Assembly (NCBI GenBank): GCA_020052235.1
Contig: JAGVPM010000119.1
Span: forward strand, 1-60,348
Direction of reading: 5' to 3'
From: Candidatus Goldiibacteriota bacterium
Lineage (GTDB): Bacteria > Oederibacteriota > JAAXVQ01
Length of the DNA stretch: 60,348 nt
Of the stretch, positions 1,007-49,787 are shown in pieces; within the stretch, counting starts at the first letter, position 1, and each line of letters begins with the position of its first letter. The notes under the pieces were generated by a model. It was given only the letters and a program-made list of their open reading frames with translations, was not told the DNA's origin and made no database searches. The translations under genes and the position numbers were made by a program.

Positions 1007-1011
1007 TTAAA

Positions 1012-2175: not shown

Positions 2176-2526
2176 CTACCTAATCCAATCATTAAATCCC
2201 GATTCGGCAATGGTCTGCCGTATACCCTGCAAATCATCGGGATTGATATCAATGAGCTCAAATCCGGTGTCATAAAAATCGGTGTTAACGCTGCGTTCGC
2301 ACCATTTACTGACTGCCTGAAATTCCAAAAATTTTTCACCTTGCGGTCCTGCGTCGGTCAATAGCTTTAAATGAAACGTTTTTCCTATTTCCGTGGGAAA
2401 CTCGCTCATCATCATAATCCCCTGGGTGGTGATATCCACTAAAAACCCAAGCACTGCGTTACTCTCGCGCTCTATAACCCTGAGGTAAAAAATCAAATGC
2501 CGACGCTTAAATTTGCGTTTTTCCAT
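2176..2526 (-). CDS. PilZ-domain (c-di-GMP binding) protein
   Basis: KRKFKRRHL (RxxxR-type) followed by VDITTQG (DxSxxG-type) in a 116-aa protein. Confidence 0.75.
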   Translation of the reverse strand: MEKRKFKRRHLIFYLRVIERESNAVLGFLVDITTQGIMMMSEFPTEIGKTFHLKLLTDAGPQGEKFLEFQAVSKWCERSVNTDFYDTGFELIDINPDDLQGIRQTIAESGFNDWIR

Positions 2527-2602
2527 ACGCCAACCTCCTTCGCCTGCACTTAATCACCCGATTTCGGGATTTATTTTATGGATATAACCGTGCTCAAACA
2601 GG

Positions 2603-3229: not shown

Positions 3230-3424
3230 TTCGTTCTCAACATCCTTTATTTTTGCCGCTGCTTAATTTTTTTTTACTCCCCGGTATGCGCCTGCCGTCA
3301 CGCTCCCAGGGCCCAGCGAAAAATCTAAATGCCGCTTTATAATTGTAACTCAGCCGTGCCTATTATACTGATTCAAATATAGAAAAACCAAGGACTATTT
3401 ATAAAGTTATTTTTATATACACCA

Positions 3425-3441
3425 TTCCCGCGAAGCGGGAA
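3425..3441. repeat. Short REP-like hairpin ttcccgc-gaa-gcgggaa
   Basis: Perfect 7-bp stem in a 335-nt intergenic region. Confidence 0.4.
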
Positions 3442-3564
3442 CGGAACCTAAATTCCGGACTATTAATTATATGTGTTTTACGTTATGATTTAATCATTCT
3501 GTTTCCAAACGTTTTGTTTCAGCCTAACAGAGTGATCCGCTTCTATCCTTGAGGATTATTTATT

Positions 3565-32804: not shown

Positions 32805-35800
32805 CTACGCTGCCTGATCCATTTTTAAAGACGGACGCTGCATGCCGGGCAATTTCCTGCGGTCAATCCATATGGGCATGGGTGCCATCAATTCTGACAA
32901 CGCGCCTTGCAAGGCATTGGTCTGCGGCATTAGCAATAGCCGCGGTAAAAGCAACTTTACGCGCTCCAAGGTACCATTAACCTGTACTTGTCTAACCCCG
33001 GCCACAAATCCCTGCCAAGCCGGAACCTTGGCTACCAAATCCAGCAATGTCCGAGTAGACTGTATCCGTTCGGCAGGTTGTTCCTGGGATTGAATAGCCG
33101 AAACCATGGCTCCCAGGAAGACCTTGGCATTGGCATCCGAAGGCCGGGCACTCCACTTCAAATACGCCTGATTAAGTTTGCCTTGACGCAAGTCCTGCGC
33201 CAAGCGGGATTCATCCTTGCCTAATTGTACCCTGAGATAATTAAGGGGCGCTACGCCCATCCAAATGCGATGAAGGGCATGCGTCATCCAACCCAAAGGA
33301 AGCGTATCCTGCAAAGACGTGGCTGCCCGGCGGCTCTCAGCGTTGATTTGACGCATATGATATTCCAAGGCAAGCCGCATTAAATATCCGGAAAATGCTC
33401 CCCGGTTCTGCATCATACCCGCCGGAAGATAAATGGTCGGCGTGCCTTGATCATTATATACCACCCGCCCAAAGGGCGCAGTCCATTGTCTGAGCCATCC
33501 GCCCGGAAGGCGATTCAGGGCCTGAAGGCCTACGGGCAGGTTGTAATCACCGGCGCCGTATTGGGCCATAATTTTCATGGCCGCGGCCTCGTATTGACTC
33601 TCGGTCAGCAGCTTGGCCCAAGCCTTGTTGCCTTCCGCCACCCGGATGCCTTTTTCAGTCTGCCCGGCCAAGTAGAAAAGCAAGGCGCCTTTCACCATAT
33701 ACAAAGCTCCTTGGAAAAATTGGATCATGCCGTCCACGGGCATTCGCAATCCCGGCTGCCCGGCTTGGCTGGGATCGGCGTTAAACAACACGCTGCGCAA
33801 CAAGTAACTCGTCAAACGCGACACCCAACTGCGTTCTCCAAAATAGGGCCGGTTGACTTCCCCGCTTGCGGCTGCCTGCGTTTCCGAAGGCTCTTTTTGT
33901 TCCTGAATTAAGACTTCGGCCGTACCTGCTGGGGTTGCTTGCAGGCGCGCCTCGGCGAATACATCGCGGCCCCAGGTCAGGGTTGCAACCAAGGCGCTGA
34001 ACCCATCCGTCAATGAGACCAGCAAATGATTCAAGGTATTCCCGATTTTCGGAATATGTTTAAACGGCAGCAGGCGTTCAAACCGCTCGTGCCAGCGAAG
34101 CCATGTGCTGGTAAATGCACCGGCGTACTCCGCATATTCCGGGCGCACGCCGCGGGTGCCGGGCGTGGCCATGACTCCGCCGCGCGAAGCAATAAACCAG
34201 GACCAGAAATTTTGCTTCCGGCCGACTGGCTGAGCGGCATTAAAACGCCGCCACAGGGATAACAGCATGGCTTCTTGAATTCCAAAAAGCAACGCACTAA
34301 TCACGGGCACGAACCATACTCCCGACAAGACAGCCAACGACGTAAACACCACGCCGGATAAAACCACATTGGCCACGGACATGGCCGGCGTTTTTTCCTT
34401 TTCCATTTCCTGGACCTCGGATCCGAAAACCGCAAAATGATTCTCCTCAATCTGACGCTGTCCGATCATATTTAAAGCCGCATGCCATCGAATGTCATAC
34501 CGTGGCGTCTTTGTCCGCGAAAGCTCGCCCAATTCCTTGAGAATACTTAAAATATCCTTATAATAAGTAACATAGTGACGGTTGCTTAAAACCGCTTCAT
34601 ACGCATCGGCAATGGTCACGGCGCGGCTGATGTCCGAAACCTGGTTGCCAACCAGCTGATCGGGATATCCTTTTCCATCCAGCCATTCATGATGCCGGGT
34701 TCCATCCACAATCTCAGCCGGAAATCCCAAAGCAGTCAGTAGTTTCGTACCCAACCTCGGATGCGTTTGCAGCAACGCCCGCTCCGGTTCCGTAAGTTCC
34801 TGAGTTTTATGCAACAGACTCAAGGGAAGCAGGATTTTTCCTGTGTCATGCAGCAAGCCGGCGTAAAGAAAACTTTCCACCTGTTCCCGGGTGAAGCCTT
34901 CTGTGGCATTGGCTTTCCCGAATACCGCCGCCATTTCCGCCGTGATCTGACCAACCCACCAGGAATGCGCAAAGGAATAATCCGGATCAAATCGGTACAA
35001 CAAAGTCAGCAACAACCAAATCGTAAATTCCTTACGCTTGGCCTCACTGGCTCCTTTGAAATCCGCAGCCAAAACCTCTTGAATCCATTGATTCAACTCC
35101 TCACCGACGGCGGACACTTTTCGTTCCAACTCGGGGGACCAGCGTTCCCGCACCTGCTCTGCGAGTTCCAAATCCGTCATGAAAACACGATACCGATTTA
35201 AAATATCTTCCGCGCCTTGTAATACGGCTTTACGCCGCTCAGGCGTCAAAGCTCCATACTCTTGCATAATCCGCCGGAAGGAAAATGACCGGGCATTCAC
35301 TGAAAATGCCCGGGCAAATTGACGTTCCGCCTTAAACACAGAACTGGTCTGCAGTTGCTTGCTGCGCACCTGGCGTATGGTTTCCTTGAGTTGAGTTAAA
35401 TAACCGGCCGTTTGCAAATCAAACGGTCCAGCAGGCGCCATATTGCCATTGGCGCGCATTTGATAATTATGCAAATACCCTGGAATGGAATTTGCTCTGG
35501 TTTCGAGATCTGAAACCGGCACCACCACGGGGCCGTAGATCCGGTCATCCAACCGCAATACCTTTCCTCCTGTCCCTTCCAGGTAAAACTTAACCCCCGC
35601 CACTTTGGTTTCAATGACAAACACTTGATCAAATTTCCATGCAATGGCCTCAAACCCGGATTGCTGCAACCGCTGGGCGATCAACCAGGCTGCAGGGGCG
35701 CTTAAATTGGGATACCGAATGTCATCGGCCAAATCCTCCAAATCGGATTTGAGCGATCCCAGAACTTGATGGAACCGGGCCACTTCCGGTGCATCCGCAG

Positions 35801-38800
35801 CAGCAACCGGCATTTTTTTCTCTGCCAACACGCGCTGCAACAAAGCATCAAATTTCCCGGCCGTCGTATTCGCATATTGGGTTAACTTGCCATTTTGATC
35901 CATTTCCGCAAACTGGGCCGTTACCATGTCCACGGCATAATGCATAGCCGCCTGCTCGGCTGCTGGCAAAAATGCCAGCATGTACCCGTTTACAGGCTCG
36001 GCCAAGCCGGCCAATTCGCTGATTAAAAATTTACGGGCCTCTGTAGTCTGCAAATCCACTTCAGCCAAATCCAGGAGCGCTTGAATAATAACCCCAGGTT
36101 GGGGATGCGCGCCGCGCATGTGCCCGAGAATAATTTTCACGGCATGGATTTCCTGGACAGCTGTCACAAGCTCCCCAGCTGGTGTTTTCACCGACAATGT
36201 AAAAACCTCGGCTTGGCCCGGTAAGACAGTTGGGAGCTGAAGGCGGCGAAAAACCCTTTCGAATTTGTGGCCATTTTGTTCCACGGGAACCACAGTTTTA
36301 TAATAGCCACATCCTGCAATTTCGTGTCCTAGACTATCCTTGACAACGACCGCACCGCGTAAATTTTCCGGTGAATGACCTTCTTGTTCAAGTTTGGCAA
36401 GCGTTCCCGCAATCTCGGCCGGCAAATCAATCCACATTTCTTTTTCTTTATGGTCTTCAAAAGACGCAACCAAGATACGCTGAACTTGGCCGCGGAATGA
36501 ACCGGCGGTATAAAAATAATCGCGTCGACTGTTATCCAATACTTCGCCTACAAAGCCGAGTTCTTTAAATGCCTTGAAAACATCATCTGCATTAAACCGA
36601 TGCCTGGCCGTATAATCGTGATCCTCGGACAGCGGCATGCGCATTTCCCAATATGACTGGCCGTTGCGCAATTCTTTTACCGTCTGCGGGTCACCCCAGC
36701 GATCGCCAAAAGTAAACCCGATAAAACGCGCCGTATCCCCGGGGAAATTTGCCGGATTTGCATAATAAGCGAGCGCTTTGATTAAATCATTTCGCGTGGG
36801 ATATTTGCGCGGATCGTCATGGGTACTCATGCGCTGCCAGTCAAAATCAGTAGCCGTAATGCCATGGCGCGCGATTGAAGGTGCGCGGTTTTCGAATGCT
36901 TCACCCATTAAAAAAGCGTTATTTTGTGAAAATACACGGGAAAGTTTTTCAATAAAGTCATCCTCAGGTTCATCGCCATGTCCGAACTGACCATAAAACT
37001 TATATGCAAAATGCAGCGCGTCGCCTCGGGCACCGTCGAATCCGGCATCCAGCCAATATTTCGCCGGATCCAAAATGTAAGCATAATCGTCCGCTTTTAA
37101 TGCTGTCCAATTCCATAACGCAAGATCCCCCCAGCGTTCGTTAAGACCATCTTTCACAACTCCAGGATGAAGATGCGGAGCGCCTAAATAACGTTTTTCT
37201 TTATCACCCCAGAGCAATGGATTTAACTTTGCCCTGAAGAACGGCAGATCAAATAAAACCTTGCCTCCGGCTTTGTGTACCTCGTCGATGGCCGCTTTCA
37301 GCTGATTATATCCCAACCACTGGGCGTGTGCATGGCGCCGCATCTCGTCATTGAAAGCCGGTTCTTTTTCAGCGGCTGCGATATCGTCTTGAGTCCAGGT
37401 ATCAATCGGCTTTTTAATGGTATCAATTAAAGCGGCTATCCGGCAATACCGTGGCAGCCAGCTTGCTCTTTCCGTTTCAAATGCTTCGAATTCCAGGGCG
37501 CGTTTATTTGATTTCGCTAAATCTCCCGCTTTAAATGCCTGCCAAGCTCCGCGCGAAATTCCCAGAACCCGCTTGCGAAGATTATCATAATCTACCTTGG
37601 TTTGTTTTTCAGGCGGTGCATGAATAAGTGCCATTAGATTGAGATCGGCCTGAACCTCGGTTACCTTCGACCAGTCAATGTCAAGTTCACTTACTGACCG
37701 CGGATCAATGGCCGCGTAGGGACTTTGGTCAGCAACGGCCATATGCGGCAAAAGCAGCATAATACCGATACCCAAAGGCTTTAAATATTTTTTGTAATAA
37801 TCAGCCAATCTGGAAAAAACCCCAATACCAGAATCTTTCGATCCGTCTTCCGAGCGCAAGGAGTATACTGGGATTGTTTCAGCAAAAAATTGATTTGTGT
37901 TGCTTCTCCACCAATTGCTTTTTTCATATTGCAGTCGCGCCCTGTCTAAGCAAGCTTGGGCGGAATCGAAACCATCGCTGCCGTCCGAGGGCATAAGATA
38001 CTCGGCCACCACGCGGTTAAATTCAGCTACGCTCCAAGTTTGTGAATAAGTACCGCCGGGAGTCTGGCGCATCGGAGCATGGGCCGGGTTACCACCGTCA
38101 AACACTTCCGGAAGAGTGAGCCTGAATGGTTCGGCGCCCCGCGGCCAACCGGAATATGTAGGCCAAGTGTCAGGATGAGTGGTATTTTCATACCATCCGC
38201 TCAGAAAATCAGCCAACCCCGTCAACCGCTGGCGAGCTGCTGTACGTACCTGATTTTCAGGAACATTGGCACCGCGCAGAACATTGATGAGCGCATCCGT
38301 TCCGATTCCTGAAAGCCATGGCCATACGGTTCCCTGGTGATATGCATGATCCTTATCTTGCGGTTCCCGATTGGTCTCATAAATCGAATGATATTGCGAA
38401 TCCCGTGGTGACAGTGTCCGGAATCCGAAGTGTGTCAGTAAATCTGCTTCTGCCGCTACCAACACCGCAGCTTGCCGGTCCCAACTCAAGAGATCCCCCG
38501 CCGCCGCGACCGCAAACAGCATATTCGGACGGATTGCATCGCCATGCGGATCGCCTTCGACCACGTCTCGCAGGACGCCACCCACAGAGGCGCGCAGTTC
38601 CTGCGCTTTATCTTCAGGGAGGTTATTTTCAGCTATAAATTTATCGGCGGTTCCTTGCCACGCCCGAGTATTTTCTTCGTTTTTAAACCAAAACTTATCG
38701 TTGAACGATTGTTTAACGCGCCCCGCAAGACGGGCGTAGTTTTCGGACTCCTTACTAGTTCCGCTCTTCTCTTCTGCAAATTCCATAAACTTAAGCGCCG

Positions 38801-41800
38801 CGTACCAAAGCGCGTTAATCTCCACGGGTTTGCCATTCCGTGGCGTGACCGGGTCCTTGCCGTGAATTGCCGCATCCATCCAGGTCGACTGCGCCGGTAC
38901 TGCAATCAACGCATCCGCCGGATCCATTTTTATCGGGTTAAACCGATCGTTGCGATAATATCCAGTTCCTTCGCTGTAATTTCGTATAATCTCCCGCATG
39001 ACCGGCATCATGTCCGACAAGAATTTTTTATCATTGGTATATTCATAGGTTTTTTTAACCGCTTGAAAAAATAAAAGCGATCCGTCGGAAGTGTTATATT
39101 CATTTTTATCCGATTCAGCGGGGCTCCAAATACGGTTTGGAATCACGCCATTTTTAACGCGGCGGGCAAAATTGCGCAGCAAAGTTTCGGCATCATCAAA
39201 CCGGCCTTCCACCAGCAATGTGCCCGGCAGCGAAATAAACGTGTCGCGGCCCCACTCCTCCTGAAACCATGGGTGCCCTGCCCAGATCTGCGGAATGCCG
39301 TTCCAACTTTTTACAAACGTACGCACGGCATTTGAACCCAGGAATAAAAGCCTGCCTGTATCCCGCCATACATTCGGCATGGTTTTCGTATCATCTGTGA
39401 TACGCCCAATTAATGGTTGGACGGAACTTGATTTCGGCCTGATAATTATTCCAGATGCCAGTCCGGGAATCCAGCGCACCAGGACTGTATTCCATAAAGT
39501 GTGGATTACCAGAGCAACCGCAAATCCGAGCACCGCCCCTGCCGTGATTCCCCAGACCGCAGCCAAGCCAAGCATTCCGAGAAGGCCCAGCGCAGCTCCG
39601 GCAAAAACCGCGGCAGCCATCAGCCCGGTTAGAATAACCAATTGCCCAATATGGGCTGCGGTTATAGGAACCGACTGATAATTTTCCGTTTCCTTGTTAT
39701 AAACCAGAACAGTCCTGCCATGGAGCAAAGTCATGGCTAGGGAGGGAATGCCCAGCGAAAGCAGACCGGTCAATGTGGGGTTGGCCAGAAAATCCGGTGA
39801 AAGCTGGAATACCCCCACGACTCCTAAAGCCAAGGCAGTGGTTTCCAACACCAGGGCAATCATTGCCCGGCCCCAATGGATTTGGCCGGTGGTTTTATCC
39901 AAAACCCAATTTTGAAACAGACCAATCACACCAAGCGTAATCCTGCGTGATTCAGAAGTGTTTTCGGTAATCCTTAAAGCAGGCGCGGATATTTTTTGAA
40001 TTCGCAGTAATTGTGCAACGAAATAGTCCAAAGATTTTTTAAGCGAACCAATTTTATCTCCAACCGGGATAGTCAAATCACTCACGTGAATACTTTCTTG
40101 GAGTGAGTCGATCATCCGAAGATAGGCTTGCGCGCGTTCATTATTTGTATCATTTTTATTCAACGTGCGCAGGAACTCAAACAACCAGCCTGCCTTGATA
40201 TGCTGCGCGATTTCCATGCCTGATCCACCGGATTTGTTTTCATGCAACACGCGCAGTGAATGTACGAGCAATCTTTTAAAATCCGTCAGCCCTTTTTTAT
40301 CGCCATTGCGGTAACCATTGAGTCTGTATGGAGTTGCGATAGCGTCGCCATCTAAAAGAGTCATGATCATACGGGTTGTGTCCGGATTATTTTCCAACGT
40401 TCGGATAAAATCATCGATTTCGGATTTGAGCGGAATTTCCTGCGGCTCATATTTCTGAGAGAGTGATTTATCATAATCAGCGTTAATAACTGTTTCCAAT
40501 TGATTAAGCAAACCCGCGAATAAATCGAACTTTTCCCGCAAACTAAAAACTTTATTATCCGCCTCCAATTCCTTCAACCACTCGGCAATCGGTTGGAAGC
40601 GCTCCTCGCCGATTAATGTGGATAAATAAACCCGGAAACTGCCGTTGCTGACATGCTCAAAGAGTGCATTAATTTGGCCGGTGAAATGAATATTATCGTA
40701 AATCCCTCCGAAAGAAATGGCTCTGAACAGCTTTATAAAATCCCTCAGGCCGCGTTTGGCCTGATGGGTTGAATACCCGCTAAATCCCGTCCTGGGGCTA
40801 ATATTGAACAGATACGGGGCTATTTTTTCATTTCCCGTCAGGAGTTCGGAAATATAATCTAGCTCCGCCTGATTGCCGGGAAAATCAGTTCTAAATTTTT
40901 GCGCAAATTCTCCTACCAAATTCCGAATCTGGGCTTGAGCCTGTTTATACGTGGTGATCTTAGCATTGTAATAAATCAACGACTCGGCTGCGGTATTCCA
41001 GGCGGTATAAACCACTGTCCCAGCAAGATGGTCGCGGCAAGCCCGGACCCAAGGCAAGTTCACAAAAGATATCGCGGCATCATCGTAATTACGGCTTTGG
41101 TCCTCTTTTTCAGCACGCATGGCAGCTATGCCGGTATCGAGCAGCATAGCCGGATCTTCTTGACCATTTGGAGAGAAAACGACATCGAATGATCTGGATG
41201 AGCCAACAGGTTCAATTTTACCCGTGGCAGGATTATAAATGCCCTCGTTAGCGCCATCGCCTAAATTGCCTTCGCCATGAAGTTCATAAATCGATACTGG
41301 TTTGCCATTTAAAAAGCCATACGCTGTATTTATCACTTGATAACTAATATTGGGGCCCAAAGCACCCGAGGCTTCCCTGACCTCGCTGGTTCCCGTGGCT
41401 TTCCAAGAGGGCGTCATAGCGCCGGTTGCGCCGATAAAACCGGCTTCTTTTAATGCTGGCTCGTAAGCAGGAACAAACAGAACCTGGTCCGGCGCGTCCT
41501 GGACACTTTTAATAACTTGCTTAAATTTTCCTTCCAGGGATTTATGATGGGGTTGCACGCGAGCCAATCCGACGAATTGGTATCCTTGCTGCGCAACGCG
41601 TTCCAATTCCCCGATGATGCGGGCATCAAATTTTTCCGGCACTAATCGGCCCGGGTACATAACATACGGGTGAGTGGGATTTAAATAAAACCCCATGGGT
41701 TTTAATAATTTTTTTCTTTCTAAAAGAGACAAAGAATTGCAGAAACTGTCCGCGATATTGGCCGCCGTCATGGAAAAAGCACTGGAATCGCCGGGAATAT

Positions 41801-44800
41801 GCGCCCGTAAGTTTTCTTTTATTTCCCGGATAAGCTTATCCCGCAATGGCTGGTCGGGTATTAATTCCTGCAAAACGATTTGTAATGAATTGCTCCACCC
41901 GTCCAAGTCCGCGGGCATTTGAAATCCCATTCCTTCAAATTGCGCATATAATTCGTTTCCAATTCGTTTTATGCCTTCTTGGTCCAAAGCCTCGGAAAAC
42001 TGAAACCGTCCAAATTCTTTAATCAAAATAAGTTCTTGCCAAGTTACGGTTTCAGGATTCCGGGGATTTAATTCTGACTTGGTAATGTACGTTTGAAAAA
42101 CATGATTGACTTTTTCCAGCATTTGGAGAACTATCGCCACCCGGACATCGATCGCTTCACCATAATAGAACGAAACGGCTAAATCCATAACCTCGTCCGA
42201 GCTGGTTTCCTTTTTTTCGGCCAAAGCTTGCAATCGCTGGATTTGCTTTTCCCTAGCTTCGGCGGGGAGTTCATTTAAAAATTCGTTCAACTGATTTTGG
42301 ATAAAATCAGCTCGTTGATCCGCATTGGGCAACCGTTGCGCTTCATTCACCCAAGTTTGCCACTGAAAACCCATCTGTTTCACTGCCTGATATTCCACAA
42401 ACCTCGTTTTTTCAGAGGCATAACCTGCGCTTTTTAATTGTTGAATGATTTCGCGGCCGTCTTTATCCTGGTTTAACTCATTTTTTATCTCAATAAGGGT
42501 TCCATAAGCTTTTTTCACAGGCTCCAAAGTATGGTCCACATCATCGCCATTCGCAATGGAAACTGGCAAAGCTTCATGATCGCCAATTTTACTTATAATT
42601 TCACGCATCTCATTTGTGACAACATTACCGGTAATTTGAACAAGGTCAGCATAATGCATAATAAAATTTCTTTGATTTTGGCTCACATACCGGCCGCCAT
42701 GGGGTTCGCCGTCATTGCCCGCGGATAAACCAAACCCGCTAATATCGACTCTTTCATTCGCGTAACTTGCCTGGGCGGCAATACGCAGCGGAATGCCGGC
42801 GTCTTCGCAATAAATTTTAAAATCCTCGAAATTCCAAAAAAATTGCCGGTTGCCATACGTGTGGGAATCCATCACGGAAAGACCGGTTTCAAACCCAGGA
42901 TACGCGGCGACTAAAGCGGTTTGGCCGTCATTGGCGATGATATTATTTTTTTGGTAGGACGAACCTAATTTTTTCTTAAGTTCTTGATTGCGCCGCTCAA
43001 TCGCAGTGGTAAATGCTTTGTATAAGAAAAAATTCGTTTCCATTTCCCCGTGAGGATTGTGTTGGCTGCCATAAGCGTATAAAACCGGCAAAAATTCAGG
43101 TTGTTCTATAAAACTAACCCGGACACCGTTTTGCTTATAATAGCCTTCCTTTACTTTCACTTCATATTCTTCATATTCAACCACCGGTTTGTTATCCTGG
43201 TATTCTTTGAAAGGCCTGCCGTTAAAGCATTTGGGCATTTTAATCTTAAAGGTATCAACTACTCGGGGCTCATCCACCCATTGGTACGCACCGTCTTTTC
43301 CGCTTACTTGCGAAACGCCTTTCAACCCCAGCGATCCTAAATCAATCGGTTCTTTATGCCCCGCTGAATTAACCTGATGGGGATAGGAAACAGTCCAGAC
43401 GGTTTGCTGGGAACCAAAAGGATCGCGGGGATCTCGAATCTTCGCATTCCAGTCTATTCTCGTAGCAAATAAATTTTCAAATCCGTCCATAATGGTCTTG
43501 ATCACATGGGACAAACCGCCACCGGTCGGAAAAATTTCCGCACTAATCAAATCCAAGGGACGGCCCTGCAATTCCCGCAAAGTCTGAAACCAACTACTGG
43601 GAACTTTCTGGTACATGAGCAGGGTCTTGAGCGCCAGGGTGTTGTTGTGGAAATCGCTAAAATGATTTTGCATGGTATTCAGCAGCAAATCATGGAGCTG
43701 CGGGCCGGTTCCCGGGATGAATCTCAACCGCACCACAGCATGTAAAAAGGGATAGTATGGTTCGATCATATCAAGCGGAAACACATTTCTTAACTGTTCA
43801 CCCATCTGATCTAAAAAGGTGATTAATTCTTGCTCCGCCGAGGTTTTTTCAAGCAAGCCGGCGTTATTTAATTTATTTAACCGTTCTTCCAATTGCTCGC
43901 GGTATTTGGTCCAATCTTTTGATTTTATGAGGTCAAGATAAAATTCTTTTTGTGAGTCCGTTAGTGCTCCGGATTGTGGCTGGGGGCCAAACCCAGGAAG
44001 CCAGCTTTCCTTTTCGCCCACCATAGCGGCGGCCAAACGTCCGCTGCTGTTCGGGACCAGCAGTAAATTCCAGAGGGTGTGGATAGCAAGCGCGGCCAGG
44101 AAACCGAAGGCCGTACCGAGGGCAAGGCTGGCGGCCAAAGGCAAACCAGCAATTCCCGAGATTCCAGCCAGAATGCCGGCGGTGATCACACCCGACATGC
44201 CCACGTGAACAGCCAGCAGGGACAAATAATGATACCATTTCGAGGTAACTTTTACATACCGGCCACCCATATATATAACCGATTCCCGGCCATGAAAAGC
44301 CGCCATCAAAGCAGCCGGGGCCGCTATTGCCGTAAATTTGGACAGTAAGTTTACTTGAATCCATGGAGTTCCGCCAGAGCCCACCAACGCCAGTGCCGCA
44401 AACACCAATCCCGTAAGCAACAACCCTTCCAACACAAGCGCCACCGCAGCCCGGCTCCCATGCAACTGGCCGGTGGTCTGATCAATCACCCATTCGCGAA
44501 GACTGGGGATAATGGCAGGCACGGCGTTTTGCCGGAGCGCAGTAACGGCCAAGCCCCACAGTCCGCTTGCCAAAGCGAGCATTTCGGCCCAGGTGGCCCA
44601 AAACTCCGAAAACCGGCCCGGGCGCTCCTCGTGGGTGCGTTCGTGCATCTGCACGGCGTTGCGCAATACATTGACCAGCGGGCTCTTGGAATCCTTGGCT
44701 AAACTTTCATATAAAAATTTCGTGGGTGACGCATCCAGGGGAGTGATTGCCAATTGCACGGAATTTTTCATCCAGGACCAGACGGTCTTCAAACGCGATC

Positions 44801-47800
44801 CGTCGATCAGCTCCGATTTCTCCACGGCGAAAATATACAAAAAGTCCAGCAACCCGCCCGTCAGCAACATATTAAAAGTTACTATCCCCGGGACAAACGT
44901 GGGTAATGAAAGAATTGCGCCGTTGGTTAACCAGGTCACGAACGTTGTTACCAGCGTGACCACGGCGCTGGCCAACCCCGAAATACCCAAAACCACGGGC
45001 ACCGAATGCACGGTTTTTGCCAACCCGCGGTTTAAAATCTCCTCGACCAGTGCATCCACCATGCTGCTGACCAATTCCTTGGGTTCGTGTCCCATGAGCA
45101 CCACGGCCCCCTCGGGCGGCCTGGCCAACGCCGCTCCGATCTTGCCTTCAGCCACAATGGGCCCCTGTACCGGATTGATCCAAAACTTCACATCCGCATT
45201 GGGCAACCACTGACTAGCTGCCTGCCCCACCAGAATGACCCGCTTGCCCGACATGTTCGAACGGATAAGGCGCTCAACATACATCTGCGCTTTGGCATTC
45301 CGGGCAATATAACTCAGCAAATTCTTCGCATCCATATTCTCCAGATAGGGCCGAATATCTTTGCCTTGGTAAAAAATCTGCTCGCCTTTAAAACTTAATT
45401 TCAAGGAACCTAAAAATTTCGCAAGCTTGGTCTCGTCCGTAACCTGAATGCCTTCGGATTGGGCCACCCAGGCCAGTGCGCGGAAGATCATGCCCAAATC
45501 CAGAATCCGGTAATTCAAATGAGCGCCTAGTAAACGGGCCGCATCGTATTTTTCGCGTCCCTGGGATCCATCGACGGTAATCAGCCACGCCAATTCCTGC
45601 AGTTTATTCTGCTTTTTCACCACATATTTGGGACGGGTCAAGGCATCATAGAGGATACCCAACTCGGAGGTGAAAATTTGCACTTCACCGCCAAACTCCA
45701 AGTTCGCACTGGCCCCCAACCGGATCTTTAAATCCATATATTGGTCTTGGGAACCCAAGGTTACTTTATAAACACCTGGTTGTACTTCCAAAACCTTGGC
45801 ATTTTTCCCATACACGCCGTTAAACTCCGATTCCTTGCCTTCGGGAACATTCGATACATTTTCCAACACCACATAACCGGATGCGCGTAAATAAACCACC
45901 AACTGCGTCAACAACTGTCCAAAATCCACATCCCCCCGGACGCGCAACGACACGCCCACTACATCCTGAACAATCCGCATGATGGTCTCGTTATTGAAAT
46001 CACCGAGGGTAAACTGGTCCGGTTGTTTGGATGGATAGTAGCGATGCCAGTTGGCGCGCATATTCTCATAAATGGAGTACAAAGTCTTCGTACGTGCCCG
46101 GAGGCTTTCCGCTCCCACAAATTCACCCGGAACCACGGCCGCCGTTCCTTTTAATTGAAAGCTTAAAAGTTGGTCCTCTAAAAGACGACGTTCCTTCTCC
46201 CGGCGATCCGGCTGGATCAGGGAGCGCAAATGCCTGACCAAACTCCCTTGTGACTCATAAAACTTTTTCTCGCGTTCATCGGCAAAACGATTGCCCCATT
46301 CCTTGATCACACCGGCAAACAAACGCTGCAGAAGGCCGCTCTCCGGGCGCTGCTCCACCCGGCCACGGATGCGCTTAACGACCTCAGCCAAGGTCTTCAG
46401 GTCTAATTTCTCAAAAGTGCCGGGCTCCAGACGGTAGCGCCGCATGATCTCAAACGCCGCTGCGTTGGCCTCATCTTCATCCTGCGCCTCCAACTGTACG
46501 GTCAAGGTCATGAGCTGCCGGTGCCGAATTGATTCCAGCAGGGCTTGATATTGAGCAAACGCGTCCTGAGCCGCGGCCAGCCACTGGTTCAGGTCTTGAA
46601 TGACACGCAAACTAACTTCCTGGTCCGAGCCGCGGGTCCACTCTACATCAGGATGCTCCTGTACCAAGGTGCTGCCCTCTGGTTTAGCCACTTGTTCCAA
46701 GTTACTCACGGCCCAGCCGATCAGTTCTGTTTCCAAATCCCGGGCACTCAAACCTTTTTTCTCGGGATGCGCCTGCAGGTAACGTTGCTTGGCATATTTA
46801 CTGCTTGCAACAGCCAGGGAAAATGTCATCGGGAACATAAACCCATGGTTAAAATCGCTCCAGCGGTTCGGCGCGAACGCGGTGGTTCTTAAATCCTTTT
46901 CTTCAATCCCGGCCTTGGAAATTTCTTTTTCATATGCCAAACGCGTCCGGCTGGGCATAACCAACAGAGTCTGGCCCCCAGGCGCATTGAAATCGAGCAT
47001 GCCGCCTTGCCGCTGCACGGCTTCAATCAATATTTGGCGGCGCTCTATGGGCCAGGCGCGCACATCAGCCTGTATGTTTTCCACGTAGTAATAACGGGCA
47101 AAATACACTGCCACATATTCTTGGGCGGCTTTCAACATACTCATCAAACGTTCTTCGCCCTGTTTACCGCCCAAGGATTCGCCGGCCATAATGAAAAAGT
47201 TGTCCGGATCACCCAAGAAAACTTTAAACTGATTACCCAGCTGTTTTTGCAACAACAACAACGCTTGCTCTTTAACAAACTGAGTGATTGCAGGTCCGTA
47301 GATGGTGCGCATTTGAGCAATACCGTCAATAGTCCCGGCCGTAAGCACCACGTCCTTATTATCGCCAAGCAGTTTACGCAGGGCCCTCTGCCCTGTGGAT
47401 CGTTGCGGTATCTTTTGGCGTTTCTCAATGGGCTGGTCGGAAAAAGAAAGCACGGGCCAAGCCAGGCCGGGGAAACGATCCGCCACCCAGTTATTCAGGT
47501 TGTGCAGCAACGTGGCGGTGATGAAGGCCAGCACGCCCTTGCCCACCACCACGCCCGGCGTCAAATACAGAACCGTGGCCATGGAAGCCGCGGGAATACC
47601 CCAAAGCGCAATACTGAAAAACACTCCGGAAATTGCCAAGGTAACCGCCAAGGCAGCCAGCCACTGTCCGGAGCTCCACTGTTTACCGCGGTGCAAATAA
47701 ATAAATCCAAGTCCAAACACCGTAGGAATGGCCAGCAGGAGCGGCAAAGAGGCCGCACCCAGGCCAAACATCAATACCAAAGGCGCAACGCGGAATAAAA

Positions 47801-49787
47801 GTTCTTCCACCCCCGGACGCAAAGCGCGCAAAGGATTAATCATTCGGACCGATATTTCATTTTTAAATTTCTGCATGATGCTTGGTGCCACAACCGCCGC
47901 GCTTCCCACTGTCAGCATAAACGCGTACAGTCCCGCCGGGAGCGCTCCCTGAACCGCCAGCCCGCTCAGCTCCAACCTTGCTCCGCCCAGCAGCGTCTTG
48001 ACATTCGCTTCCGCCGCCCCCCGCGTCAGCACCGCCACCTCATAGCCTTCATTCATCCGCAAGGTCTCGACCGCCAGGCTTCCCGCATTATTTTCGCTGC
48101 GCGGTCTTACCACCGCCACCAACCCGCTGTTTTTCAACGGCAACAGATATGTTCGGGTGCGCTCATTCCCCTGCGCCCGTTCCCAATCAATCTCCTGCTT
48201 TTCACCACGGTATCCCTTCAAAGCGGCCTCATACGCAGCCTTCAATTCCGCCACGCCCTTCGTGCCCTGTTCCACCAACCTTGCCGCCAAGTCATACTTG
48301 ATCGCCACGTCCAGCAATTTTCCAAATGTTGTCACTGCTTCGCCCGCTGCAACCCCGCGCTGCCGGAACTTCGTCTCCAGCGCCAGGATCGTTTGATTCT
48401 GCGCCAGCAACTTTTCCAACGGCGTCCTTTTTTCCTTCAACAGCGAAAAATACGGATTCACCAAATCCACATGCGTGATCCTCGGCTTCACGCTCACATA
48501 TCCGATCCCGCGTTGTTCCAATTCCGCCAATACATCCTGCGTATGATACCCGCCCGTGATCATCACGCCCACGTTCGCTTGCGCTGCCTTCATCCGGTTT
48601 TCAATCTGAGTCACAAACGTCCGGCTGCGCTCATCCGCCACGCGGTAAAAAGTCTCCGTTTCCTTCACAAATTCGTCCAGTCCTTGAATTTCCGCATCTA
48701 GGCCAAATTCCCCTGCCGTGTCCTGCGCTTGGATGTAATTTATAAACTCGTTTACACGGTAGCGTTCCGGATTTTTTCTATAGGCACCCAACTCTTCCGG
48801 TGAAGCCGAGATGTTCACCAGCTTCTCGATGACATCCAACCGGTTTTCCAGCTCATCCAGTTTCCGTTCCGCTTCCTTTTGGTACCATCCCTCTCTCAGT
48901 GCCGCGTCCGCGCGGTCCATTTCACGGTACAGTTCATCCGCATCCACCTTTGCTTCGAACACGTCCATCCCCGTTGATACGTAGGCTTCCAACTGCGGGT
49001 ATTCTTCCATGCCCTGCCCGTTTTTTTTCAGCGCCCCGGACAAGTACAACCCGTACCTCAGCACGGATTCTTTGCCTTCACGAAACCGCGTCCGATGCCG
49101 GTCGTGAGTGCTCAAGGTTTCCCCGTACACCTGCGGCTTCAAATTCTCCAGACTCTCCCGCAAATCGTATACGTACCCTTGGCTTTCATCGGACAAGAAT
49201 TTTTTCACGCTCGCGCGGTTGGACTCGTACTGTTTGACGTCTTCGATGCCTTCCAGCCGGACAGGATACTTGCCCGTGGCCGCATAGTATTCCGCCCCAG
49301 TGATTTTGCCGGCCTTTAAAAAATACTGCCCCACATCATTCTTCACTTGTGCCACAGGGCATTGGCTTAATACACCCACATCCACTTGGCTCCAGGCCCC
49401 TTCTACTCCCACCACGCCCACACCGTTATTTTTTGCCAAATATCCCAAAATTTCCGCGATATTATTCTGAACTTCCGCATTGCAATGCAAATCCTGGATA
49501 TAGACCACCGCACGCCCTTGGCCGGCTGACCTCTTTACGACCGTCCCCAGGCTTTCGGGTATCTCAATGGCTCGGCCATTAACAACGACTGCACTTTTTG
49601 GACTTGAGAAATTTTGGATATCAAAGGCAAAGGAAAGGTACGGCAGGATAAACGTTAGGCTCACAAACAAGGAAACCAATCGTGTGATTTGTTTAAACCG
49701 GCGATTGTGCCAAATCATCAACCATTGGCCTTGAACCAACGTTTTATTTAAAAAGAAGCGTTGAAACAAATCCATCATGGACATCAC
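32805..49787 (-). CDS. Giant multidomain membrane protein (5,660 aa): scaffold shared with the 1,978-aa paralogue plus alpha-glucan enzyme modules, HD-GYP and pseudo-enzyme modules
   Basis: Single uninterrupted 16,983-nt ORF with RBS gaggtg at the tandem ATGs. My residue count of the translation sums exactly to 5,660, and motif positions were checked against the DNA at EELLFR (47790-47807) and HDTGK (34836-34850). Confidence 0.9.
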   Translation of the reverse strand: MMSMMDLFQRFFLNKTLVQGQWLMIWHNRRFKQITRLVSLFVSLTFILPYLSFAFDIQNFSSPKSAVVVNGRAIEIPESLGTVVKRSAGQGRAVVYIQDLHCNAEVQNNIAEILGYLAKNNGVGVVGVEGAWSQVDVGVLSQCPVAQVKNDVGQYFLKAGKITGAEYYAATGKYPVRLEGIEDVKQYESNRASVKKFLSDESQGYVYDLRESLENLKPQVYGETLSTHDRHRTRFREGKESVLRYGLYLSGALKKNGQGMEEYPQLEAYVSTGMDVFEAKVDADELYREMDRADAALREGWYQKEAERKLDELENRLDVIEKLVNISASPEELGAYRKNPERYRVNEFINYIQAQDTAGEFGLDAEIQGLDEFVKETETFYRVADERSRTFVTQIENRMKAAQANVGVMITGGYHTQDVLAELEQRGIGYVSVKPRITHVDLVNPYFSLLKEKRTPLEKLLAQNQTILALETKFRQRGVAAGEAVTTFGKLLDVAIKYDLAARLVEQGTKGVAELKAAYEAALKGYRGEKQEIDWERAQGNERTRTYLLPLKNSGLVAVVRPRSENNAGSLAVETLRMNEGYEVAVLTRGAAEANVKTLLGGARLELSGLAVQGALPAGLYAFMLTVGSAAVVAPSIMQKFKNEISVRMINPLRALRPGVEELLFRVAPLVLMFGLGAASLPLLLAIPTVFGLGFIYLHRGKQWSSGQWLAALAVTLAISGVFFSIALWGIPAASMATVLYLTPGVVVGKGVLAFITATLLHNLNNWVADRFPGLAWPVLSFSDQPIEKRQKIPQRSTGQRALRKLLGDNKDVVLTAGTIDGIAQMRTIYGPAITQFVKEQALLLLQKQLGNQFKVFLGDPDNFFIMAGESLGGKQGEERLMSMLKAAQEYVAVYFARYYYVENIQADVRAWPIERRQILIEAVQRQGGMLDFNAPGGQTLLVMPSRTRLAYEKEISKAGIEEKDLRTTAFAPNRWSDFNHGFMFPMTFSLAVASSKYAKQRYLQAHPEKKGLSARDLETELIGWAVSNLEQVAKPEGSTLVQEHPDVEWTRGSDQEVSLRVIQDLNQWLAAAQDAFAQYQALLESIRHRQLMTLTVQLEAQDEDEANAAAFEIMRRYRLEPGTFEKLDLKTLAEVVKRIRGRVEQRPESGLLQRLFAGVIKEWGNRFADEREKKFYESQGSLVRHLRSLIQPDRREKERRLLEDQLLSFQLKGTAAVVPGEFVGAESLRARTKTLYSIYENMRANWHRYYPSKQPDQFTLGDFNNETIMRIVQDVVGVSLRVRGDVDFGQLLTQLVVYLRASGYVVLENVSNVPEGKESEFNGVYGKNAKVLEVQPGVYKVTLGSQDQYMDLKIRLGASANLEFGGEVQIFTSELGILYDALTRPKYVVKKQNKLQELAWLITVDGSQGREKYDAARLLGAHLNYRILDLGMIFRALAWVAQSEGIQVTDETKLAKFLGSLKLSFKGEQIFYQGKDIRPYLENMDAKNLLSYIARNAKAQMYVERLIRSNMSGKRVILVGQAASQWLPNADVKFWINPVQGPIVAEGKIGAALARPPEGAVVLMGHEPKELVSSMVDALVEEILNRGLAKTVHSVPVVLGISGLASAVVTLVTTFVTWLTNGAILSLPTFVPGIVTFNMLLTGGLLDFLYIFAVEKSELIDGSRLKTVWSWMKNSVQLAITPLDASPTKFLYESLAKDSKSPLVNVLRNAVQMHERTHEERPGRFSEFWATWAEMLALASGLWGLAVTALRQNAVPAIIPSLREWVIDQTTGQLHGSRAAVALVLEGLLLTGLVFAALALVGSGGTPWIQVNLLSKFTAIAAPAALMAAFHGRESVIYMGGRYVKVTSKWYHYLSLLAVHVGMSGVITAGILAGISGIAGLPLAASLALGTAFGFLAALAIHTLWNLLLVPNSSGRLAAAMVGEKESWLPGFGPQPQSGALTDSQKEFYLDLIKSKDWTKYREQLEERLNKLNNAGLLEKTSAEQELITFLDQMGEQLRNVFPLDMIEPYYPFLHAVVRLRFIPGTGPQLHDLLLNTMQNHFSDFHNNTLALKTLLMYQKVPSSWFQTLRELQGRPLDLISAEIFPTGGGLSHVIKTIMDGFENLFATRIDWNAKIRDPRDPFGSQQTVWTVSYPHQVNSAGHKEPIDLGSLGLKGVSQVSGKDGAYQWVDEPRVVDTFKIKMPKCFNGRPFKEYQDNKPVVEYEEYEVKVKEGYYKQNGVRVSFIEQPEFLPVLYAYGSQHNPHGEMETNFFLYKAFTTAIERRNQELKKKLGSSYQKNNIIANDGQTALVAAYPGFETGLSVMDSHTYGNRQFFWNFEDFKIYCEDAGIPLRIAAQASYANERVDISGFGLSAGNDGEPHGGRYVSQNQRNFIMHYADLVQITGNVVTNEMREIISKIGDHEALPVSIANGDDVDHTLEPVKKAYGTLIEIKNELNQDKDGREIIQQLKSAGYASEKTRFVEYQAVKQMGFQWQTWVNEAQRLPNADQRADFIQNQLNEFLNELPAEAREKQIQRLQALAEKKETSSDEVMDLAVSFYYGEAIDVRVAIVLQMLEKVNHVFQTYITKSELNPRNPETVTWQELILIKEFGRFQFSEALDQEGIKRIGNELYAQFEGMGFQMPADLDGWSNSLQIVLQELIPDQPLRDKLIREIKENLRAHIPGDSSAFSMTAANIADSFCNSLSLLERKKLLKPMGFYLNPTHPYVMYPGRLVPEKFDARIIGELERVAQQGYQFVGLARVQPHHKSLEGKFKQVIKSVQDAPDQVLFVPAYEPALKEAGFIGATGAMTPSWKATGTSEVREASGALGPNISYQVINTAYGFLNGKPVSIYELHGEGNLGDGANEGIYNPATGKIEPVGSSRSFDVVFSPNGQEDPAMLLDTGIAAMRAEKEDQSRNYDDAAISFVNLPWVRACRDHLAGTVVYTAWNTAAESLIYYNAKITTYKQAQAQIRNLVGEFAQKFRTDFPGNQAELDYISELLTGNEKIAPYLFNISPRTGFSGYSTHQAKRGLRDFIKLFRAISFGGIYDNIHFTGQINALFEHVSNGSFRVYLSTLIGEERFQPIAEWLKELEADNKVFSLREKFDLFAGLLNQLETVINADYDKSLSQKYEPQEIPLKSEIDDFIRTLENNPDTTRMIMTLLDGDAIATPYRLNGYRNGDKKGLTDFKRLLVHSLRVLHENKSGGSGMEIAQHIKAGWLFEFLRTLNKNDTNNERAQAYLRMIDSLQESIHVSDLTIPVGDKIGSLKKSLDYFVAQLLRIQKISAPALRITENTSESRRITLGVIGLFQNWVLDKTTGQIHWGRAMIALVLETTALALGVVGVFQLSPDFLANPTLTGLLSLGIPSLAMTLLHGRTVLVYNKETENYQSVPITAAHIGQLVILTGLMAAAVFAGAALGLLGMLGLAAVWGITAGAVLGFAVALVIHTLWNTVLVRWIPGLASGIIIRPKSSSVQPLIGRITDDTKTMPNVWRDTGRLLFLGSNAVRTFVKSWNGIPQIWAGHPWFQEEWGRDTFISLPGTLLVEGRFDDAETLLRNFARRVKNGVIPNRIWSPAESDKNEYNTSDGSLLFFQAVKKTYEYTNDKKFLSDMMPVMREIIRNYSEGTGYYRNDRFNPIKMDPADALIAVPAQSTWMDAAIHGKDPVTPRNGKPVEINALWYAALKFMEFAEEKSGTSKESENYARLAGRVKQSFNDKFWFKNEENTRAWQGTADKFIAENNLPEDKAQELRASVGGVLRDVVEGDPHGDAIRPNMLFAVAAAGDLLSWDRQAAVLVAAEADLLTHFGFRTLSPRDSQYHSIYETNREPQDKDHAYHQGTVWPWLSGIGTDALINVLRGANVPENQVRTAARQRLTGLADFLSGWYENTTHPDTWPTYSGWPRGAEPFRLTLPEVFDGGNPAHAPMRQTPGGTYSQTWSVAEFNRVVAEYLMPSDGSDGFDSAQACLDRARLQYEKSNWWRSNTNQFFAETIPVYSLRSEDGSKDSGIGVFSRLADYYKKYLKPLGIGIMLLLPHMAVADQSPYAAIDPRSVSELDIDWSKVTEVQADLNLMALIHAPPEKQTKVDYDNLRKRVLGISRGAWQAFKAGDLAKSNKRALEFEAFETERASWLPRYCRIAALIDTIKKPIDTWTQDDIAAAEKEPAFNDEMRRHAHAQWLGYNQLKAAIDEVHKAGGKVLFDLPFFRAKLNPLLWGDKEKRYLGAPHLHPGVVKDGLNERWGDLALWNWTALKADDYAYILDPAKYWLDAGFDGARGDALHFAYKFYGQFGHGDEPEDDFIEKLSRVFSQNNAFLMGEAFENRAPSIARHGITATDFDWQRMSTHDDPRKYPTRNDLIKALAYYANPANFPGDTARFIGFTFGDRWGDPQTVKELRNGQSYWEMRMPLSEDHDYTARHRFNADDVFKAFKELGFVGEVLDNSRRDYFYTAGSFRGQVQRILVASFEDHKEKEMWIDLPAEIAGTLAKLEQEGHSPENLRGAVVVKDSLGHEIAGCGYYKTVVPVEQNGHKFERVFRRLQLPTVLPGQAEVFTLSVKTPAGELVTAVQEIHAVKIILGHMRGAHPQPGVIIQALLDLAEVDLQTTEARKFLISELAGLAEPVNGYMLAFLPAAEQAAMHYAVDMVTAQFAEMDQNGKLTQYANTTAGKFDALLQRVLAEKKMPVAAADAPEVARFHQVLGSLKSDLEDLADDIRYPNLSAPAAWLIAQRLQQSGFEAIAWKFDQVFVIETKVAGVKFYLEGTGGKVLRLDDRIYGPVVVPVSDLETRANSIPGYLHNYQMRANGNMAPAGPFDLQTAGYLTQLKETIRQVRSKQLQTSSVFKAERQFARAFSVNARSFSFRRIMQEYGALTPERRKAVLQGAEDILNRYRVFMTDLELAEQVRERWSPELERKVSAVGEELNQWIQEVLAADFKGASEAKRKEFTIWLLLTLLYRFDPDYSFAHSWWVGQITAEMAAVFGKANATEGFTREQVESFLYAGLLHDTGKILLPLSLLHKTQELTEPERALLQTHPRLGTKLLTALGFPAEIVDGTRHHEWLDGKGYPDQLVGNQVSDISRAVTIADAYEAVLSNRHYVTYYKDILSILKELGELSRTKTPRYDIRWHAALNMIGQRQIEENHFAVFGSEVQEMEKEKTPAMSVANVVLSGVVFTSLAVLSGVWFVPVISALLFGIQEAMLLSLWRRFNAAQPVGRKQNFWSWFIASRGGVMATPGTRGVRPEYAEYAGAFTSTWLRWHERFERLLPFKHIPKIGNTLNHLLVSLTDGFSALVATLTWGRDVFAEARLQATPAGTAEVLIQEQKEPSETQAAASGEVNRPYFGERSWVSRLTSYLLRSVLFNADPSQAGQPGLRMPVDGMIQFFQGALYMVKGALLFYLAGQTEKGIRVAEGNKAWAKLLTESQYEAAAMKIMAQYGAGDYNLPVGLQALNRLPGGWLRQWTAPFGRVVYNDQGTPTIYLPAGMMQNRGAFSGYLMRLALEYHMRQINAESRRAATSLQDTLPLGWMTHALHRIWMGVAPLNYLRVQLGKDESRLAQDLRQGKLNQAYLKWSARPSDANAKVFLGAMVSAIQSQEQPAERIQSTRTLLDLVAKVPAWQGFVAGVRQVQVNGTLERVKLLLPRLLLMPQTNALQGALSELMAPMPIWIDRRKLPGMQRPSLKMDQAA
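32808..34385 (-). other. C-terminal membrane-anchored tail (aa ~5135-5660) related to the smaller giant ORF tail; zincin motif degenerate
   Basis: Two hydrophobic helices come first. YLPAGMMQNRGAFSGYLMRLALEYHMRQ then occupies the position of ELYFHEN..LAIVAHELEHLQQ in the paralogue, with the first His lost. Both proteins end in ..AA. Confidence 0.4.
34563..34985 (-). other. HD-GYP c-di-GMP phosphodiesterase-type domain (aa ~4935-5075)
   Basis: HSWWV, AGLLHDTGKILLP, HPRLG, RHHEWLDGKGYP and IADAYEA. Confidence 0.85.
36588..37895 (-). other. GH77 4-alpha-glucanotransferase (amylomaltase)-like domain (aa ~3965-4400)
   Basis: IPVYSLRS..SGIGVF, IMLLLPH..DQSPYAA.D, LFDLPFF, FDGARGDALHF, MGEAFEN and MSTHDD (compare TGTHDN). 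Confidence 0.6.
38298..39290 (-). other. Amylo-alpha-1,6-glucosidase (GDE_C, archaeal-type glycogen debranching) domain (aa ~3500-3830)
   Basis: AGHPWFQEEWGRDTFISLPG, GVIPNR, YNTSDGSLLFF, STWMDA, TPRNGKPVEINALWY, RPNMLFA and YHQGTVWPWL. Confidence 0.7.
39453..39935 (-). other. Membrane module 3 (aa ~3285-3445), internal repeat of module 2
   Basis: WVLDKTTGQIHWGRAMIALVLE, TLLHGRTVLVY, ITAAHIGQLVI and ALVIHTLWN. Confidence 0.5.
41298..43550 (-). other. GT-B glycosyltransferase, glycogen/starch-synthase-like, with a ~400-aa insert between the lobes (aa ~2080-2830)
   Basis: FPTGGGLSHV (compare KTGGLGDV), IIANDGQTALVAAY (compare HDWHTALVP), YPGRLVPEKF (compare VGRLxxQKG) and MTPSWKATGTSE (compare MPSRFEPCGLxQ). 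Confidence 0.45.
44043..45005 (-). other. Membrane module 2 (aa ~1595-1915) with HERTH and IHTLWN motifs
   Basis: NAVQMHERTHEE (HERTH at 44631-44645), WVIDQTTGQLHGSRAAVALVLE, AAFHGRESVIY and ALAIHTLWN. Internally repeated as module 3. Confidence 0.45.
45138..45590 (-). other. Cytidylate-kinase-like fold with a destroyed P-loop (aa ~1400-1550)
   Basis: ITVDGSQGREKYDAARLLGAHLNYRILDLGMIFRA..GKRVILVGQAA..ADVKFWI parallels Cmk IAIDGPxGSGKST..LG..YLDTGAMYRA..G.V.EGRD..A..KIFL. GxxGxGK[ST] is replaced by GSQGREKY. Confidence 0.5.
47088..47354 (-). other. Degenerate GGDEF-like (nucleotide-cyclase-fold) segment (aa ~812-900)
   Basis: TIDGIAQMRTIYGPAIT..LLLLQKQLGNQFKVFLGDPDNFFIMAGE parallels DIDHFKxxNDxxGHxxGD..RxGGDEFxxx, but the signature residues are replaced. 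Confidence 0.3.
47463..47975 (-). other. Membrane module 1 with the full CPBP/Abi-type motif set (aa ~605-775)
   Basis: EELLFR (aa 661-666), YLHR (aa ~697-700) and LLHNLNN (aa 760-766) lie within consecutive hydrophobic helices. Confidence 0.5.
48378..49520 (-). other. Shared N-terminal module (aa ~90-470); possibly Tiki/TraB/ChaN-like
   Basis: YIQDLHCNAEVQ, VEG, GAEYYAATGK, ITGGYH and NPYFSLLKEKRTPLEKLLAQ are colinear with 9151-10308 of the smaller giant ORF. Confidence 0.4.

Follow-up and report, generated by a model that had tools for sequence, protein, structure and literature searches.

A giant multi-enzyme protein of a Goldiibacteriota bacterium carries three reiterated four-helix membrane modules with possible kinship to CPBP proteases

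Contig JAGVPM010000119.1 of Candidatus Goldiibacteriota bacterium (assembly GCA_020052235.1) was analysed over positions 1 to 60,348, a stretch of 60,348 nucleotides referred to here as the window. Its reverse strand carries one giant open reading frame (ORF) of 5,660 codons at 32805-49787 (P0001), encoding a predicted protein of 5,660 amino acids (aa). From the N-terminus this protein comprises a head domain, a single transmembrane (TM) helix designated TM0, a membrane module (M1), a first soluble block, a hydrophobic X block, a second membrane module (M2), a GT-B block, a third membrane module (M3), a block with GDE, GH77 and HD-GYP domains, a C module and a tail. A Pfam scan of the protein identified a Cytidylate_kin domain (residues 1403-1538), a weak match to Glyco_transf_5 (starch-synthase/GT5; residues ~2200-2296), GDE_C (3498-3862), GH77 (3972-4238) and an HD/HD_5 domain of the HD-GYP type (~4940-5080). 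An initial annotation, made from the letters of the DNA, had singled out the span 39453-47975, which corresponds to residues ~604-3445 and takes in M1, M2 and M3, as holding three reiterated intramembrane-protease-like modules of a self-processing polyprotein. All the motifs quoted in support of this proposal were found at the places given for them, and all within the one ORF. The modules had also been said to sit between the soluble blocks; hydropathy analysis showed that the membrane-helix clusters holding the quoted motifs do split soluble blocks apart, and blocks recognisable by Pfam flank them, but GDE, GH77 and HD-GYP form a single unbroken soluble stretch with no module between them.

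Module 1 (47433-47855, reverse strand; residues 645-785) is predicted by AlphaFold (AF2) to consist of four long TM helices, with a predicted local distance difference test score (pLDDT) of 80.6 and a predicted TM-score (pTM) of 0.73. CPBP proteins are defined by an EExxxR motif plus two His residues in separate TM helices, the motifs lying in four core TM segments (PMC6588880), and how the Glu, His and HxxxN residues act in catalysis has been described (PMC11980579). In M1, the first motif is found in a TM helix as EELLFR at residues 661-666 (47790-47807, reverse strand), the second, FxxxH, as FIYLH at 695-699, where the following TM helix ends, and the third, HxxxN/D, in a later TM helix as HNLNN at 762-766; within or around the latter two, YLHRGK starts at 697 and LLHNLNN at 760. 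The residues E662 and H699 are 37 positions apart, and H699 and H762 are 63 apart. When all six-frame ORFs of at least 100 aa in the 3.17-Mb genome were scanned (1.87 M residues), the strict pattern EE...R/F...H/H...[ND] occurred once, in M1.

Approximately 15 copies of the M1-type (15-16) were found, spread over 11 of the order's 15 genomes. The ORFs that host them are almost all 2,153-12,659 aa long, the shorter frames being located at contig ends, and some contain two copies. The 15 aligned copies share 29-63% identity with the copy in the window and have 11 invariant columns (E27, F30, R31, P34, H64, W69, W74, A77, T81, H127 and N130) and six near-invariant ones, F60 and N131 among the latter. 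The residues of EExxxR, FxxxH and HxxxN are among the conserved columns: the second Glu, the Phe and the Arg of motif 1 are invariant, as are the His residues of motifs 2 and 3, and the Phe of motif 2 is nearly so. Seven CPBP motif residues in their canonical order and spacing thus fall in the 11 invariant or six near-invariant columns, and the full motif set that had been ascribed to M1 is borne out by its homologues.

Modules 2 (44010-44537, reverse strand; residues 1751-1926) and 3 (39435-39953, reverse strand; residues 3279-3451) belong to a second type, termed M2/3. The motifs WVIDQTTGQ, FHGR and IHTLWN of M2, at 1766, 1831 and 1902, recur in M3 as WVLDKTTGQ, LHGR and IHTLWN at 3294, 3355 and 3428, and BLASTP aligned the two modules over 181 columns with 30% identity and an E value of 2e-14. 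At the level of sequence they are true paralogues, in agreement with their earlier description as internal repeats of each other. The AlphaFold model of M2 (pLDDT 83.8, pTM 0.81) has four long helices, taken as TM helices, and a beta-hairpin, predicted to be cytoplasmic, between helices b and c. Its conserved polar residues are E1787, H1832 followed by Gly, H1853 and H1903..W..N1907, with E3315, H3356 followed by Gly, H3379 and H3429..W..N3433 in M3. Eleven M2/3-type copies were found inside giant ORFs of eight genomes of the order, and E41, H82, G83, H105, H155 and W158 are invariant among them. In terms of the CPBP motifs, the first is absent from M2 and M3; the second is represented by the invariant HG (FHGR, LHGR) at the equivalent helix end, with the Phe out of register; and the third by HTLWN at 1903-1907 and 3429-3433, where the His is invariant. 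The Asn position of this last motif is occupied by N, D or S in the M2/3-type and by N, D, S or E over both module families. The M2/3-type has an extra invariant His at the base of the hairpin, giving a His3-Glu set.

No match between M1 and M2 or M3 was obtained by BLAST. Comparison of the M1-type and M2/3-type profiles with hhalign gave P values of 5.5e-6 to 7.3e-6 (probability 84-86%), whereas those of reversed controls were 0.1-0.18. In both AlphaFold models the polar residues fall at matching offsets: the Glu lies ~10 residues inside helix a, a His follows helix b by 1-2 residues, and HxxxN comes 18-19 residues into helix d. A looser hhalign setting pairs the single M2/3 Glu with the second Glu of EELLFR and brings the His residues to within one position of one another. 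The protein therefore has three reiterated membrane modules, as had been claimed for it, in two subtypes, with M1 a distant relative of M2 and M3. Relatives with two M1-type or two M2/3-type modules, 600-3,750 residues apart, were seen in frames of 12,450 aa (G004:C2), 10,744 aa (G007:C1) and 6,812 aa (G004:C4). Because these relatives also carry two modules per ORF, reiteration within a chain is a habit of the family and not a peculiarity of this giant.

The relationship of the modules to CPBP proteins was examined with the Pfam model PF02517, which has a gathering score of 22.4 bits. Ten of the 15 M1-type homologues gave collinear PF02517 matches of 10-16 bits (E 0.003-0.7) spanning profile positions 15-92 of 93, and this was the sole Pfam family to recur across M1-type members. 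The M2/3-type copies, which are of similar composition and served as an internal control, gave no such match in any of the 11, which argues that the M1-type signal is not due to hydrophobic bias. Against a CPBP profile built from 31 sequences of the same phylum, hhalign gave the M1-type a P of 4.7e-4 to 6.4e-4 (probability 28-33%) over 84 columns, the three motifs being in register; reversed controls gave 0.054-0.06 and 40 block shuffles a median of 0.22. A merged M1 and M2/3 profile performed worse than the M1-type alone (P 0.1), and the global mode of hhalign was uninformative. On these grounds M1 is probably a very divergent, minimal CPBP core. The assignment of M2 and M3 to the same descent is more tentative, and falls a little short of an even chance, since nothing connects them to CPBP but M1 and the invariant E, H-G, H and HxxW[N/D/S] of their own family.

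Compared with CPBP/Rce1 proteins (PF02517), which include MmRce1 (PDB 4CAD), the myxosortase MrtX and Abi-type immunity proteins, M1 has in common EExxxR, FxxxH and HxxxN in three separate TM helices and a predicted intramembrane site near one leaflet. It differs in having ~140 residues and four helices where Rce1 and MrtX have 7-8 helices, and these proteins stand alone whereas the modules are embedded three times in a 5,660-aa multi-enzyme chain. M2 and M3 depart further, with one Glu, no Arg and the added His and beta-hairpin. Divergent CPBP relatives including APH-1 (work of 2011, cited in PMC6588880) were likewise recognised only by profile-profile comparison and retain the conserved His, and QExxR variants of motif 1 are known among them (PMC6588880), as in the two M1-type copies that have QExxxR, like APH-1. 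They are, in contrast, separate proteins of 6-7 helices, and no sequence match to them was obtained with the modules. Canonical stand-alone CPBP genes are present in the same genomes and easily detected, so that the embedded modules form a separate and far more divergent set; a six-frame PF02517 search of the genome of the giant matched three other loci and not the giant.

A canonical, above-threshold PF02517 domain was also observed inside a 1,138-aa frame of another family of the phylum (L041; G039:C6:21256-21534), and this locus is possibly an intermediate between stand-alone and embedded CPBP domains. Three weak phylum-level matches (L148, L150 and L151) were rejected as family members, L150 and L151 resembling signal peptidase I. 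A metagenome scan with the closer homologue set found no relatives, and word-indexed protein searches with the region 600-3460, with M1 alone and with the region 640-790 returned only the giant itself.

The topology of the chain was predicted from hydropathy, charge and the AlphaFold models. In the modules, Lys and Arg residues are gathered before helix a, in the b-c loop and after helix d, whereas the a-b and c-d loops have none, so that both ends of each module are predicted to be cytoplasmic (N-in/C-in) and the conserved polar residues to lie near the cytoplasmic leaflet. An N-terminal anchor at residues ~34-55, preceded by RRFKQITR, is followed by the head domain (48093-49622, reverse strand; residues 56-565, ~510 aa), which is predicted to be periplasmic. 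The single helix of TM0 (47874-47942, reverse strand; residues 616-638), identified by hydropathy and the K/R-rich loop that follows it, would then bring the chain back to the cytoplasm before M1. A hydrophobic helix at 1735-1757, before M2, was assumed not to span the membrane because its counterpart in a giant of the same genus (G001) has charged residues. With these assignments, only the head segment (56-612) is predicted to be outside and every enzyme block to be cytoplasmic, a location that fits the chemistry of the blocks. The modules are accordingly predicted to tether enzyme blocks on one side of the membrane; four helices in each model and the K/R distribution contradict the earlier suggestion that they stitch successive domains to alternating sides.

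The head and tail of the giant belong to a wider family. Four ~8.8-kaa giants (kaa, thousand amino acids) of the same order are 37-42% identical to it in the head and 25-44% in the tail, with unrelated cargo between. Head-related loci number 137 in metagenome-assembled genomes of FCPU426/Firestonebacteria, with 10-20 per genome in some, and have as invariant motifs DLHCN.EVQ, GxEGA, TGGYHT, KPR, NPYF and TPLEKL.AQNQ; no match to the head was found in Pfam or the PDB. The genome of the giant itself has 11 head copies, in open frames of up to 6,556 aa. All these paralogues have TM clusters between long soluble stretches and only one, the giant itself, has M1- or M2/3-type modules; membrane stitching is therefore a general trait of the family, and the CPBP-like module is one form that it takes.

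The modules also mark boundaries of homology. Similarity to the same-genus giant G001 begins at residue 656, the start of M1, and stops at 1984, just past M2. Between M2 and M3 lies a GT-B/starch-synthase-like cargo cassette (39948-43967, reverse strand; residues 1941-3280) with a guanine-plus-cytosine content of 0.443, against 0.53-0.56 in the flanking modules, and it is collinear with a module-plus-GT-B unit of P0003, a protein of 1,955 aa encoded in a different genome of the order. The pattern suggests that the cassette was acquired between duplicated modules. In this head-cargo-tail mosaic family, the boundaries of cassettes fall at modules.

We propose that the three blocks are all copies of one lineage-restricted membrane module of four helices, represented here by two subtypes, and that this module most likely descended from the CPBP/Rce1 catalytic core, i.e. 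from the helices bearing EExxxR, FxxxH and HxxxN. Each module would insert as a bundle of four helices whose two ends are both cytoplasmic. Along with TM0, the X block and the C module, the modules would hold successive enzyme blocks against the cytoplasmic membrane, on its inner face: a GGDEF-like/pseudo-kinase block, the GT-B block, and the block of GDE, GH77 and HD-GYP. The N-terminal head alone would be outside, and exchange of cargo cassettes within the family would take place at joints marked by the modules. The repeats and their homology, the conserved residues, the four helices of the predicted models, the confinement to giant ORFs and the cassette boundaries are direct results of the analysis, whereas CPBP descent, topology and any catalysis are inferred. 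We put the probability of this explanation as a whole at roughly 0.55.

Several observations weigh against it. Neither PF02517 nor the NCBIfam CPBP models matched M1, M2 or M3 even at E<=10, whether the whole giant or the single modules were searched, and every PF02517 match among the homologues is below the gathering score. One of the 40 shuffled controls (8.2e-4) neared the real hhalign P of the M1-type, and the M2/3-type aligned to the CPBP profile with P 0.05-0.06 and through motif 3 only. Sequence-profile searches of the PDB with the module profiles gave chance matches only and never Rce1, and Foldseek searches of the PDB with the M1 and M2 models gave a best E of 0.2 and TM-scores <=0.3, without 4CAD, Foldseek being weak on short all-helical bundles. 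The first Glu of EExxxR, the catalytic one according to published work, is replaced by Gln in two M1-type members, and the M2/3-type is without the second Glu and the Arg, its one invariant Glu lying in LVLEG or LVLET. Confident alignment of the two subtypes is confined to the last helix and the R-x-PGLA tail. The basis of the topology is hydropathy, the positive-inside rule and AlphaFold only, and the restriction of the modules to one of the 11 head paralogues makes them dispensable for the family architecture.

The comparison with CPBP models that the initial annotation had proposed was thus formally negative for the three modules of the window, and Foldseek found no Rce1-like fold, while sub-threshold PF02517 matches did emerge in the M1-type homologues. 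The negative curated-model and fold searches can also be read to mean that the modules are lineage-specific four-helix anchors or joints of other descent, in which buried Glu and His would serve helix packing or bind a metal or lipid and the likeness to CPBP motifs would be convergent. The M2/3 profile is consistent with such an origin, for among 1.84 billion representative proteins it found five, the query included, none of them a stand-alone CPBP protein; so is the His3-Glu set, which is typical of metal sites, together with weak matches to HXXEE (PF13787) in 4 of the 11 M2/3-type copies (E 0.007 for M3). Convergence does not readily account for the canonical order and spacing of seven motif residues among the conserved M1-type columns, for the recurrence of nearly the whole PF02517 profile in two thirds (10/15) of the members or for an hhalign register that spans all three motifs, and we regard an origin outside the CPBP proteins as unlikely.

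As for function, the intramembrane Glu/His/His/Asn set is invariant in a large number of diverged copies; a passive anchor would hardly account for this, which argues that the site is functional. The activity of the M1-type would most likely be that of a glutamic endopeptidase acting on juxtamembrane segments at the cytoplasmic leaflet, with linkers next to it in its own chain, other copies and the ten paralogues as candidate substrates; we judge the odds that M1 is a protease to be even. The site of M2 and M3 could equally bind a metal, because of the extra invariant His and the beta-hairpin. CPBP descent may, alternatively, have been followed by a change to a non-proteolytic role as a scaffold or regulator, for example in organising oligomers of the giant or recruiting lipids. 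APH-1 of gamma-secretase is a CPBP-fold protein that is not proteolytic and works as a scaffold (PMC6588880), and two further reports describe CflP as a non-catalytic CPBP protein (PMC13692083) and a CPBP partner in staphylococcal lipoprotein N-acylation as another non-protease precedent (PMC7387801). The loss of the second Glu and the Arg from the M2/3-type and the APH-1-like QExxxR of two M1-type copies would suit such a role. The M1-type has nevertheless retained E, R, H, H and N in full at 30-40% identity, which goes beyond what a scaffold should require, and a purely non-proteolytic module of CPBP descent appears to us improbable.

The polyprotein proposed in the initial annotation would require the modules to be active and to cleave the precursor, either in cis or from one copy to another, at linkers next to the membrane such as the conserved R-x-PGLA segment behind the last helix, thereby releasing or separating the enzyme blocks. 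In its favour, residues of the catalytic type are invariant over the 15 M1-type and 11 M2/3-type copies, the predicted site at the cytoplasmic leaflet adjoins the linkers, the modules are positioned at block boundaries, and the juxtamembrane PGLA segment is the most conserved element common to both subtypes. Self-processing has moreover been put forward for other giant bacterial proteins with C39 or S8 domains (bioRxiv 10.1101/2023.11.21.568195). It is harder to reconcile with the lack of a module separating GDE, GH77 and HD-GYP, with the other TM clusters that 10 of the 11 head-family paralogues in the genome carry in place of the modules, and with the fact that a cut beside a four-helix anchor would leave most blocks membrane-bound. 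To our knowledge there is also no CPBP enzyme that acts on its own chain. We thus hold self-processing to be unlikely, and the same judgement applies to the narrower idea that M1 itself cuts the giant. Less likely again is a polyprotein supplied with its own maturation enzymes throughout, in which minimal CPBP-derived proteases at each joint would cut the precursor, or the ten paralogues in trans, at R-x-PGLA.

The giants of Omnitrophota described by West-Roberts et al. (bioRxiv 10.1101/2023.11.21.568195) are the closest parallel: they too are ORFs of great length that combine numerous TM segments with carbohydrate-active domains of mixed kinds, and their embedded C39/S8 peptidase domains led to the same polyprotein hypothesis. 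They come from a different phylum and have a different protease class, whereas the enzymes here are predicted to be cytoplasmic ones of alpha-glucan and cyclic di-GMP metabolism. The preprint does not mention CPBP modules, and our full-text literature searches found no paper describing such modules inside giant proteins. Whether giants act as single chains or as cut pieces is explicitly posed there as an open question. It is relevant to that question that the joints between enzyme blocks are occupied here by a module of the protease type whose catalytic motif set is intact; as the module is small, conserved and easy to mutate, the question becomes directly testable. The data further suggest that a CPBP core can exist as a ~140-residue four-helix unit missed by current family models, so that the superfamily may be wider than annotated, and they present a mosaic family that would build membrane-tethered multi-enzyme chains from module-plus-cargo cassettes. 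If the polyprotein reading were true, one 17-kb gene would yield a stoichiometric, membrane-tethered set of alpha-glucan and cyclic di-GMP enzymes; if the modules were mere anchors, the result would amount to a modest observation on how domains are arranged in an uncultured lineage.

Two elements upstream of M2 were also considered. The X block (44829-45002, reverse strand; residues 1596-1653) is hydrophobic, probably forms two TM helices and is confined to this genus. The HExxH sequence HERTHE, which the initial annotation had reported before M2, is indeed present at residues 1715-1720 (44628-44645, reverse strand) but is conserved only within the genus, being kept in the same-genus orthologue alone, as HERVH. 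No family match was found for this region in the Pfam scan, and the X block and HExxH together may or may not have a zincin-like role. The idea that HERTHE is part of the repeat unit was rejected, as it is missing before M3 and before the order-level copies, and so was the idea that the X block and HERTHE are a diverged C module (hhalign P 0.077).

A second member of the head family was observed in the window at 4579-10515 on the reverse strand; it encodes 1,978 aa and has TM clusters of its own, without an M1- or M2/3-type module. The C module of the giant (33888-34412, reverse strand; residues 5126-5300) is a different reiterated membrane unit, of two helices, located before the tail. It has the conserved motifs PAMSV.N, RGG, W..HE..E..PF and NHL..S.TD, and it occurs once in the giant and three times, at 45-53% identity, in the same-genus giant G001.

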